This document shows, piece after piece, positions 29,016-30,254 of a DNA stretch of 64,000 bases. The translations under genes were made by a program, and so were the position numbers. Source of the stretch: a virus; IMG/VR virus record IMGVR_UViG_3300046512_000174, positions 1 through 64,000 of that record; one strand, written 5' to 3'. How positions within the stretch are numbered: the first letter of the stretch is position 1; every line of letters begins with the position of its first letter. The notes under the pieces were generated by a model that saw nothing but the letters and a program-made list of their open reading frames with translations, searched no databases and had not been told where the DNA came from.

Positions 29016-29049
29016 GCCGCCCCGCATTGAGCAATGGAGGGGCGGTTTT
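29016..29049 (+). terminator. Probable terminator after ssb
   Basis: GCCGCCCC...GGGGCGGTTTT hairpin with short U tract. Confidence 0.5.
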
Positions 29050-29086
29050 CCACTCTGGGGCCTCCCCTCCTACAAGGAAGCCGTAA

Positions 29087-29308: not shown

Positions 29309-29634
29309 GCCCGGTTATCCTTTGTCCACGGGTTGAAGGCTACGAAACCCTTGAAAGCGTGCTCGACGCCGCGTATGCGCAAGCTGCGCATGGCAAGGGC
29401 AAAGAACGTCACGCCAATGACCTGCCGTTTCACAAGCAGCGTATGCAGTCGATCAGCGATCTGCTCGACTCCGATGAGGGCATGGCTTATCAGGTCATCA
29501 AGAAAATGACCGAAGGCCTGCAATTCACGGATCCGGCCGCGCGCGAGAAAGAATTGCTCGGTGCCATCGTCTACATCGCCGGTATCGTCGTCCGCCAGCG
29601 TCAGTCTTTGGCGGGCACACCCGATGGCCAGTGA
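29305..29634 (+). CDS. Conserved phage hypothetical protein
   Basis: QAAHGKGKERHA...ELLGAIVY pattern, coupled overlaps. Confidence 0.7.
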   Translation: MSPVILCPRVEGYETLESVLDAAYAQAAHGKGKERHANDLPFHKQRMQSISDLLDSDEGMAYQVIKKMTEGLQFTDPAAREKELLGAIVYIAGIVVRQRQSLAGTPDGQ

Positions 29635-30070
29635 AGGCGTAATCCAGAAAGAGATCATCGGTGCCCTCGGCTTCCTTTCTCGCTTATTCCGCCTGAATGG
29701 CGGCAAAGCTTGGATGTCAAACCTCGGTCCAAAGGGCGTTATAACACTCCCTGACGGTTCCAAACTGATCAAGGCGCCGCGCCCGGTCGGACTCGGCTTC
29801 ACCATGACCAACGGTGACAGCGTTCCGGGGCAAAGCGACCTTGGCGGCTGGACCAAGGTGACCATAACGCCGGAGATGGTTGGCAAAGACATTGCCGTTT
29901 TTACCGCCATTGAAACCAAGCGCTCGAAGGGCGGAAAGGCATCCGACGACCAGCTCAATTTCGTCGACCAAGTGCAGCGCCAAGGCGGTATCGCGGGCAT
30001 TGCCAATAGCGTCGACGCCGCTCGTAAAATTATTGAGCAATGGGCTAGTAAAATCGGCGCTATTTTGTAG
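29624..30070 (+). CDS. VRR-NUC domain nuclease
   Basis: E..IQ...GQSDL...AIETKR..G..S.DQ..F...GGIAG. Confidence 0.85.
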   Translation: MASEGVIQKEIIGALGFLSRLFRLNGGKAWMSNLGPKGVITLPDGSKLIKAPRPVGLGFTMTNGDSVPGQSDLGGWTKVTITPEMVGKDIAVFTAIETKRSKGGKASDDQLNFVDQVQRQGGIAGIANSVDAARKIIEQWASKIGAIL

Positions 30071-30130
30071 TATCATCGCGACGCTTCCTATTGCTTAAAG
30101 TGTTGTGGCCCGGGCTTGGGCCGTGTTGTT

Positions 30131-30254
30131 GTGGGCTAGGGTCCGGTTAGCTCCCGAACTCGAAAAGCGCATCCTGATGGCGCCGCCCATTTTTTTTATC
30201 AGTCAGACTTCAGGGGTCAGGATGAACACTTTAATGGGCGGGGACATTCAATGA
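30131..30254 (+). promoter_or_regulatory. Structured primase leader: attenuator-like stem plus 10-codon leader ORF (30222-30254)
   Basis: GTGGGC/GCCCAT stem followed by T tract. CATCCTGA/TCAGGATG and CCGCCCATT/AATGGGCGG complementarities. The uORF stop overlaps the primase ATG (ATGA). Confidence 0.5.

Follow-up and report, generated by a model that had tools for sequence, protein, structure and literature searches.

The question raised by this locus is what occupies the 180-nt intergenic gap (30071-30250) that separates a VRR-NUC gene upstream from a primase-helicase gene downstream, and whether it bears on how much primase the phage makes. The whole stretch of DNA that was analysed, hereafter the window, covers the initial 64,000 bases of a phage record that is 93,465 bp long and bears direct terminal repeats; a search for sequencing runs containing the stretch yielded two rhizosphere metagenome DNA runs and no RNA run. 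Upstream of the gap there are also an SSB gene and a helicase gene, the former being followed by a plain terminator (29016-29052), and homologues of the downstream gene are annotated as DNA primase or primase/helicase in the phages Touem01, PHB04, ST4, and Mecenats66. A preliminary description of positions 30131-30254 had proposed a primase leader resembling the rep control regions of plasmids, and we consider it probable that this segment is the 5' leader of the primase-helicase mRNA. The candidate promoter of this leader is a -10-like hexamer, TATCAT, which or a similar TATACT is found at the equivalent position in diverged relatives (alignment A5); a promoter scan did not call TATCAT at 30071-30076. 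At the position of the hairpin P0, which precedes the structure discussed below, the relatives have a hairpin too, but one of other sequence. The coordinates of all features are collected in Table 1.

Table 1. Features of the primase-helicase leader and its flanking genes, numbered as in the window
Feature	Position	Strand	Remarks
VRR-NUC gene	29561-30070		directly 5' of the gap
TATCAT, -10-like hexamer, candidate leader promoter	30071-30076	+	adjoins the VRR-NUC stop codon; weak, putative
P0 hairpin (GGCCC...GGGCC, then U/G-rich run)	30104-30125	+	upstream of the junction; flagged as terminator-like
Three-way-junction RNA, int-alpA type	30131-30190	+	MFE of isolated element; covariation; R1 81.8 bits
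P1	30131-36 with 30185-90	+	
J1/2 strand, UA	30137-38	+	
P2	30139-61	+	loop UUAGCUC, 30147-53
J2/3 strand, GAAAA	30162-66	+	
P3	30167-70 with 30180-83	+	pyrimidine-rich loop AUCCUGAUG, 30171-79
J3/1 strand, C	30184	+	
U tract (U7) after P1	30191-30197	+	possible intrinsic terminator/attenuator or pseudoknot linker
Site 1, AUCAG	30198-30202	+	complement of CUGAU in the P3 loop
uORF ribosome-binding region	30210-30224	+	UCAGG and AGGGG, 30210-16, then UCAGGAUG, 30217-24, including AUG
uORF, 10 codons, MNTLMGGDIQ*	30222-30254	+	stop overlaps primase start as ATGA
AAUGGGCGG, 9-nt complement of 30183-91	30233-30241	+	exact here; in full-leader MFE
Primase-helicase gene, 959 aa	30251-33130	+	ORF list; Pfam Toprim_3 and a weak RNA_helicase match

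Much of the local structure can be read directly from the sequence, as it had been in the preliminary description: GTGGGC (30131-36) pairs with GCCCAT (30185-90) through one G-U pair among others, a T run follows at 30190-30197, and the pairing encloses a small hairpin with GCGC arms (30167-70 and 30180-83) around the loop AUCCUGAUG. The fold is nevertheless larger than was then described, namely a three-way junction of P1, P2, and P3 followed by the U tract, in which P2, the second hairpin absent from that description, is formed by 30139-42 with 30158-61 and 30144-46 with 30154-56 around the loop UUAGCUC. This junction is the exact minimum-free-energy (MFE) structure of the isolated element, at -20.2 kcal/mol and with 36% of the ensemble; the folding energy is no better than that of shuffled sequences, the z-score being about -0.2 for the element and the whole intergenic region alike. 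Since the single sequence does not beat chance, the case for a junction RNA rests on the relatives.

The order of VRR-NUC gene, gap of about 170-230 nt, and primase gene is found in many uncultured contigs and in Pseudomonas phage Touem01, Bordetella phage PHB04, and Aeromonas phage ST4, as well as in Morganella phage Mecenats66, Yersinia phage fHe-Yen8-01, and Enterobacter phage phiT5282EW. All examined relatives of about 85-98 kb carry the junction except L019 and L020; the gap is absent from phages of 42-44 kb whose primase is related (FoX5, Mano). Covariance model R1, which like alignment A2 comprises 12 phage leaders, detects a single copy in the phage genome of 93,465 bp and recovers unseeded copies before the primase gene of PHB04 (E 2e-7), Mecenats66 (2e-6), L119 (1e-4), L023 (3e-3), and phiT5282EW (0.03), the E-values of this and our other models being rough. 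Six further R1 matches were rejected as false, those in L136, L116, and L128 lying inside coding sequence and those in L052, L053, and L059 inside the primase gene.

Covariation in the upstream regions of 21 relatives bears out the earlier claim that the leader folds into a conserved RNA structure. In the alignment of these sequences (A4), 90.4% of the cells are paired as against 68.6% in shuffles and 32-47% with slid partners, changes on both sides occur in 17 of the 19 junction pairs, and none of 500 shuffles reached any of the observed measures; A4 was fitted to the model, which favours the structure, yet the margin over the slid controls is still large. P1 ranges from 4 to 12 bp with wholly different sequences, P2 is variable in length, and P3 is short; conservation is concentrated in the junction strands (UAG, GAAAA, C/CU), and the stems covary freely. 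The frequent G-U pairs assign the structure to the + strand, and hence to RNA, and we conclude that the primase leader is a real, conserved structured RNA on that strand. A tertiary pairing between the P2 loop (UAGCU) and J1/2 (GCUAG) was dropped on inspection by eye, since copies with other P2 loops still keep CUAG.

The same comparison bears on the plainest explanation of the locus, in which the GC-rich P1 and the U7 tract are a mere intrinsic terminator of the SSB/VRR-NUC operon, of a kind with the plain terminator found after the SSB gene, and the remaining pairings arose by chance. We find this hardly credible: P2, P3, the junction strands, and the pairing of loop and site described below are conserved or covary, some copies are without a U tract, and the same RNA heads operons in integrated elements. 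By our own count, a run of at least four U within 8 nt of P1 accompanies about 15 of 20 phage-clade copies; it is missing in several phage copies and occurs in few bona fide copies of the int-alpA family to which we now turn. In the present phage, P1 with its U7 tract probably stops part of the transcripts, and the tract may add attenuation or release a short RNA.

As to the identity of the RNA, an Rfam search of the window returns chance-level matches only, and the model of the int-alpA RNA (RF02996, gathering threshold 35.8 bits) has no match in the window even at E <= 10, and none in the whole phage genome. The Rfam search that had been proposed for this leader was informative all the same when extended to relatives, since RF02996 matches the element in L094 (27.5 bits) and L011 (22.2 bits), although below threshold. 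A scan of bacterial genomes for primase homologues further yielded L240 and L233, in which Rfam's model finds int-alpA copies at 61.3 and 50.7 bits, respectively, and R1 finds both as well; these RNAs follow an integrase gene and an HTH gene and lie 1.1-2.1 kb upstream of the primase homologue. When 151 genomes were sampled from one bacterial order, 26 of them had a match to RF02996 above the cut-off. A second model, R2, made of 27 bona fide int-alpA copies only, matches at least eight phage relatives at the right place, including L094 (E 8e-4), L011 (4e-3), L119 (5e-3), L016 (0.017), and PHB04 (0.03), with L013 and Touem01 weaker. It does not find the window's own copy; its match at 29016-29060 of the window was rejected, being the plain terminator after the SSB gene. 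Because both the Rfam model and R2 miss the window's copy, its membership rests on these intermediates, through which, on the evidence of sequence comparison, the element is joined to int-alpA as a divergent branch.

The likeness extends over the whole length of the RNA, in the order P1, UAG, P2, GAAAA, P3, C(U), 3' strand of P1, pyrimidine-rich tail, and purine site. As in int-alpA, P1 closes two hairpins in a three-way junction with covariation in all three helices; the family's junction strands, C-UAG following P1, (C)GAAAA(G) joining P2 to P3, and C(U) preceding the 3' strand of P1, appear in the window as GGGC-UA-GGG, C-GAAAA-GCG, and GCGC-C-GCCC; and the P3 loop sequence CUGAU is complementary to the purine site AUCAG after the tail. 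The Rfam consensus has the same topology and junction strands, with a pyrimidine-rich tail that ends in AgGG opposite a CCuU loop. Some bona fide copies carry the P2 of PHB04, GGGUAGCUCCC, and bona fide copies, too, are found upstream of homologous primase genes. The window's copy differs in its shorter P1 (6 bp rather than 8-9) and longer P2, and in the U7 tract that P1 is followed by. A 10-codon uORF overlapping the primase start, rather than an ordinary gene, is the first ORF downstream, and the context is the replication module of a virulent-looking 93-kb phage rather than an integrase/alpA island. In the E. coli K-12 prophage CP4-57 (intA-alpA), where a textbook int-alpA copy seemed likely, neither RF02996 nor R1 has a match. 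Rfam types RF02996 as 'Gene; sRNA' and not as a cis-regulator. The motif reportedly stems from the survey of 224 motifs by Weinberg et al. in 2017. Our literature search found no published functional test of int-alpA, and the main text of that survey (PMC5737381) does not discuss it.

We consider next the pyrimidine-rich loop of P3. It had been noted that CATCCTGA (30170-77), mostly in this loop, is the exact complement of TCAGGATG (30217-24) at the uORF start; this is correct for the present phage, but as a conserved pairing it fails, the exact 8-bp match being specific to this phage and absent from L090, its nearest distinct relative (79% protein identity). The more general proposal, that the hairpin loop makes a long-range pairing of pseudoknot type, holds in that such a pairing, a pseudoknot or kissing contact, covaries, but the covarying partner is site 1, which lies 5-12 nt past P1 in the relatives, and not the AUG of the uORF. 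To quantify this, the P3 hairpin of each genome was compared with its own downstream sequence and with those of the other genomes: the longest Watson-Crick match averages 7.05 nt with the own sequence and 5.27 nt across genomes (p < 1e-4), and for the duplex of loop and site 1 the own dG is -14.3 versus -10.8 across genomes (p < 5e-5), a result with which a wider mixed set agrees, the permutation tests here and below treating related sequences as independent. At least ten different loop/site pairs occur, such as CUGCGA/UCGCAG, CACUGCUG/CAGCAGUG, CUGUUGA/UCAACAG, and CUGUCG/CGACAG, and a compensatory change separates the window (CUGAU/AUCAG) from L090 (CUGCU/AGCAG).

Site 1 is one of two purine-rich partners of the loop, the other being a ribosome-binding region. 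In this phage both stretches of the uORF ribosome-binding region (30210-30224) are complementary to the P3 loop, and the predicted duplex energies are -7.9 kcal/mol with the Shine-Dalgarno (SD) sequence, -14.2 with the uORF start, and -6.1 with site 1. As site 1 offers 5 bp only and the uORF start a far more stable duplex, the balance between the loop partners may differ in this phage from that in its relatives. Complementarity between loop and SD region is supported in 22 mixed copies (p = 1.5e-4) and covaries across subclades; within the window's own subclade the pairing is conserved (CCUGC with GCAGG) with no covariation (p = 0.31). In Yen8, L023, and phiT5282EW, the best partner of the loop is the SD of the primase itself, with 10, 8, and 7 bp, respectively, and these loops also match a second site after P1. 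The 8-bp pairing first noticed is, then, the lineage-specific form of a family-wide property, in which one pyrimidine-rich loop has two purine-rich partners.

The property is shared by the bona fide int-alpA copies, in which the P3 loop matches site 1 at 5.41 as against 4.28 across genomes and the SD window of the next ORF at 5.07 as against 4.38 (both p < 5e-5, 27 copies). The next ORF begins 12-24 nt past the end of the RNA in 25 of these 27 copies, the exceptions being L253, at 42 nt, and L286, which was mis-called. In bona fide copies the SD often lies in the loop of a small GC hairpin (P4); a corresponding SD-presenting hairpin is weak and inconsistent in the phage clade (-2 to -9 kcal/mol) and is not claimed for the window.

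The first start codon downstream of the RNA in this phage is that of the short ORF which the preliminary description had pointed out: MNTLMGGDIQ* is indeed encoded from the ATG at 30222, and the stop codon of this ORF, the TGA at 30252-54, overlaps the start codon of the primase, the ATG at 30251. A short uORF overlapping the primase start is, as we find, kept across diverged phages, being present with 10-19 codons in all 14 relatives in which it is not fused to the primase (12 ATG and 2 TTG starts), beginning 5-9 nt past a conserved purine-rich SD and ending 3, 7, or 10 nt beyond the first base of the primase ATG. The chance of such an ATG uORF is about 0.19 per locus when the gap is shuffled, and at least seven separate lineages keep it. 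Its peptides are poorly conserved, so that its position rather than its product seems to matter. In L015 and L018 the uORF is fused in frame to the primase and its start codon is the primase start, which shows that the uORF start is a genuine translation start; the purine-rich ribosome-binding site before the uORF is, where the two are fused, the primase's own. In several relatives no SD can be recognised by eye ahead of the primase ATG, which fits coupling of primase translation to that of the uORF. A programmed frameshift leading from the uORF to the primase frame was considered and rejected: a slippery site is absent, and the offset between the two frames varies among the relatives.

With a sensor-like junction, an anti-SD loop, a decoy, a real ribosome-binding site, and an overlapping uORF in a row, the arrangement points to a control that acts on translation initiation and is relayed to the primase. 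The reading that we consider better than even, drawn from the sequence comparisons above, is that of a divergent int-alpA RNA acting in cis as an anti-SD leader with uORF coupling. The pyrimidine-rich loop of P3 would act as an anti-SD sequence. When engaged with site 1, the decoy beyond P1 and the U tract, it would form a pseudoknot and leave the ribosome-binding site free; when engaged with the ribosome-binding site of the first downstream start, it would block initiation. In this phage the regulated start would be the AUG of the 10-codon uORF, and the primase would be translated mainly by ribosomes that terminate at the ATGA overlap and restart there, a coupling expected to hold primase production at a low level and to make it dependent on the state of the RNA; P1 and U7 would probably also terminate part of the transcripts. 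The leader most likely sets the amount of primase made. We infer the assignment of on and off states, the trigger, the coupling, and the termination from the arrangement of these parts.

The leader fold of SAM-II and preQ1 pseudoknot riboswitches, and of the translational operators of phage T4, likewise sets the accessibility of a ribosome-binding site. They differ from the present element in that a decoy and a real site for one loop are an unusual design, and no ligand or repressor protein is indicated here. Our preferred explanation includes, as a special case with a named kind of trigger, a riboswitch-like version of the anti-SD leader, in which the junction would bind a metabolite or protein and thereby choose between site 1 and the ribosome-binding site as partner of the loop. 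Conserved junction strands among freely covarying stems are the usual pattern of an aptamer, and the two-partner loop resembles an expression platform; against this stand the lack of any indication of a ligand or protein, downstream genes that differ between copies, and the class that Rfam gives to int-alpA, which is not riboswitch. We therefore regard this special case as distinctly improbable.

A different comparison is offered by the small RNAs c4 of phages P1 and P7 and CI of P4 (C4, RF01695), which lie inside the leader of the operon that they control and consist of a closing stem and two hairpins, with a pyrimidine-rich loop complementary to downstream sites on the same transcript. The resemblance of our element, whose loop complements downstream sites in the ribosome-binding region of its own transcript, is functional only. 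In P1 the target of c4 includes the ribosome-binding site of icd, a small ORF with which the following gene is translationally linked by coupling. The C4 model has no match in the window or in 19 relatives (E <= 5-10), its positive control being the 55.9 bits obtained in L175, where a C4 RNA stands at the corresponding place before a primase homologue (62% identity). The closing stem of C4 is moreover 17 bp long, and its only junction strand is a J3/1 of 7 nt, J1/2 and J2/3 being absent; RNase P excision and the role as immunity factor belong to C4 and CI.

These RNAs suggest that the phage element might itself be a trans-acting, self-targeting sRNA. Transcripts ending at P1 and the U tract would lack site 1, their P3 loop would thus be free, and it would pair with site 1 or the ribosome-binding site of read-through mRNAs, so that the uORF, and through it the primase, would be repressed in a dosage-dependent manner. 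Such a role would accord with the sRNA type assigned by Rfam, with the U tract after P1 in most phage copies and the loop targets just beyond it, with the similar build of C4, and with related bacterial primase operons headed by int-alpA (L233, L240) or C4 (L175) or containing isrK/c4-a1b1 matches (L185); the P4, P1, and P7 systems work by loop-target pairing on the same transcript (PMC3632133). Several phage copies and most bona fide int-alpA copies, however, have no U tract, most of the latter have an ORF 12-24 nt after the RNA as expected of a 5' UTR element, the window has neither a C4 match nor a junction layout like that of C4, and a single genomic copy with targets only in cis also fits a pure cis mechanism. 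Weighing both sides, we think this trans-acting role unlikely.

The likeness to plasmid replication control, from which the preliminary description set out, is of another kind. In the IncI-alpha plasmid ColIb-P9 (repY/RLP-repZ) and in R1 (tap-repA), the stop codon of a short leader ORF overlaps or abuts the start of the replication protein, whose synthesis depends on prior translation of that ORF, and a hairpin loop makes a long-range downstream pairing in IncI (PMC4705826). The leader-ORF geometry is the same in our element, with the ATGA overlap here and the uORF kept at the primase start in the 14 unfused relatives, coupling being putative. The pseudoknot of IncI has its partner next to the ribosome-binding site of the initiator gene, where translation of the leader peptide exposes it (PMC4705826); here the covarying partner lies before the uORF, and the geometry proposed earlier is not that of this locus. 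A counter-transcribed RNA competes for the loop in IncI, and the two RNAs are unrelated: any resemblance by descent to plasmid rep leaders gives way to membership of int-alpA. An antisense RNA over the leader, which had also been envisaged, is not indicated by a minus-strand promoter scan, in which no site falls over the leader and the single site called (30480-30453) lies inside the gene and within shuffle expectation.

An IncI/IncB-type switch would moreover need a structure to be opened by leader-peptide translation, and the candidate is the fourth pairing of the preliminary description, between CCGCCCATT (30183-91) and AATGGGCGG (30233-41). The two are exact complements as claimed, but the pairing is not conserved: over the family the own match averages 4.7 nt and the cross match 4.4 nt (p = 0.13), and L090 has 5 bp only. 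When the region is shuffled, about 4% of the resulting sequences contain an exact 9-nt inverted repeat. For the full leader, the predicted MFE does use this pairing and breaks P1 (-39.4 versus -30.3 kcal/mol with the junction enforced, pseudoknots being unscored). In the nearest relatives the uORF retains a motif of GGCGG type that is able to pair with the C-rich 3' side, and one suggestive compensatory difference between L096 and L097 keeps a 5-bp pairing 6 nt before the ATG; the pairing may thus have a local role in this phage. For the full switch, in which leader-peptide translation opens this pairing, a pseudoknot activates the primase, and an antisense RNA opposes it, the overlap of uORF stop and primase start, the position of the pairing against the primase ribosome-binding region, its dominance in the predicted MFE, and its traces in the nearest relatives can be cited. 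The pairing's lack of family-wide conservation, a covarying loop partner that stands upstream of the uORF rather than beside the primase ribosome-binding site, and a sole minus-strand promoter-like site at shuffle level inside the gene make this switch very improbable as an account of the locus.

Returning to the cis-acting anti-SD leader, two things are new, namely a clade of primase leaders that escapes Rfam's model and a conserved uORF relay, the latter being an extra layer in this phage clade. The RNA precedes the primase-helicase gene in a clade of phages of about 85-98 kb with Pseudomonas, Bordetella, Aeromonas, Morganella, Yersinia, and Enterobacter hosts, and int-alpA, an orphan motif in Rfam, receives from this locus and its relatives a concrete, testable job. 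On a broader and more tentative view, which we would put at well under even, int-alpA RNAs are widespread, re-targetable anti-SD switches before replication genes of phages and mobile elements, here extended by a uORF relay that meters primase-helicase. If this were true, a sensing junction, or the trans dosage of terminated copies, would decide between decoy and ribosome-binding site, and the phages would possess a counterpart of plasmid copy-number control built on a different RNA. The cultured relatives Touem01, PHB04, ST4, Mecenats66, and fHe-Yen8-01 make the mechanism directly testable. For annotation, the element accounts for the intergenic gap, about 170-230 nt long, that precedes these primase genes, and it makes at least two gene calls in published relatives questionable.

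The operons of related primases seem to be headed by one or the other of two RNA types, C4-type or int-alpA-type, because in Methylobacterium soli a C4 antisense RNA (RF01695; L175:453-536, 55.9 bits) precedes a primase homologue that has 62% identity by about 2 kb, and in a Pseudomonas genome matches to isrK and c4-a1b1, both sub-threshold, are found close to another primase homologue (L185:1554-1642). The three-way-junction element itself is also found in another setting: on a 43-kb IMG/VR contig, a copy detected by R1, the covariance model built from 12 phage leaders, does not immediately precede the primase but lies some 850 nt further upstream, in front of a different ORF, which by our placement starts at L033:391 and runs to 822.

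The first three bases past P1 are very often N-C-C (as in ACCC, UCCC, and AUCC), both in the bona fide int-alpA loci (L251-L286) and in the phage-type relatives L094, L096, and L097. This tail resembles the CACC tail of C4 RNAs as well as the tRNA 3' end, an analogy by which it may hint at processing by RNase P. In the copy from a Paraburkholderia MAG, a separate hairpin, small and with a CCCC/GGGG stem ahead of UUU (L180:2452-2468), stands between P1 and site 1, the P3-loop complement, as if the terminator function had been relocated from P1. The window also carries an ordinary intrinsic terminator next to its SSB gene.

On the 5' side of the junction, a -10-like hexamer, TATCAT or TATACT, is kept at or directly after the VRR-NUC stop codon in the diverged relatives L001, L004, L011-L013, L094, L096, and L097, and may be the promoter of the leader; between it and the junction lies the hairpin P0, which varies in sequence among relatives and may form an additional structured part.

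Features located in the window and in related loci
Feature	Location	Details
Element copy	L033:301-358	IMG/VR contig; R1 E 1e-3
-10-like TATCAT	window 30071-30076	directly after VRR-NUC stop codon
Primase, Morganella phage Mecenats66 (OL614104)	annotated start L005:922	proposed start, ATG at L005:874
fHeYen801_045, Yersinia phage fHe-Yen8-01	L006:728-838	annotated hypothetical gene, 36 aa
Ordinary intrinsic terminator	window 29016-29052	CCGCCCC...GGGGCGG then TTTT; directly 3' of SSB gene

Two published gene calls look questionable. Homology and the uORF overlap put the Mecenats66 primase start at the ATG at L005:874, and the annotated start thus seems to have been set 48 nt too far 3'; and fHeYen801_045, which covers the RNA element at L006:749-819, is probably not a real gene.

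In two contigs from IMG/VR, the counterpart of the uORF start codon of the window's clade runs in frame into the primase (L018:1162 and L015:1165), giving the N-termini MSTLHDAADYGGVIDRF... and MSTSPSAADPGRALDQF..., respectively; compared with this fused type, the uORF type appears to have some 22 additional nt, with a stop and a new ATG.
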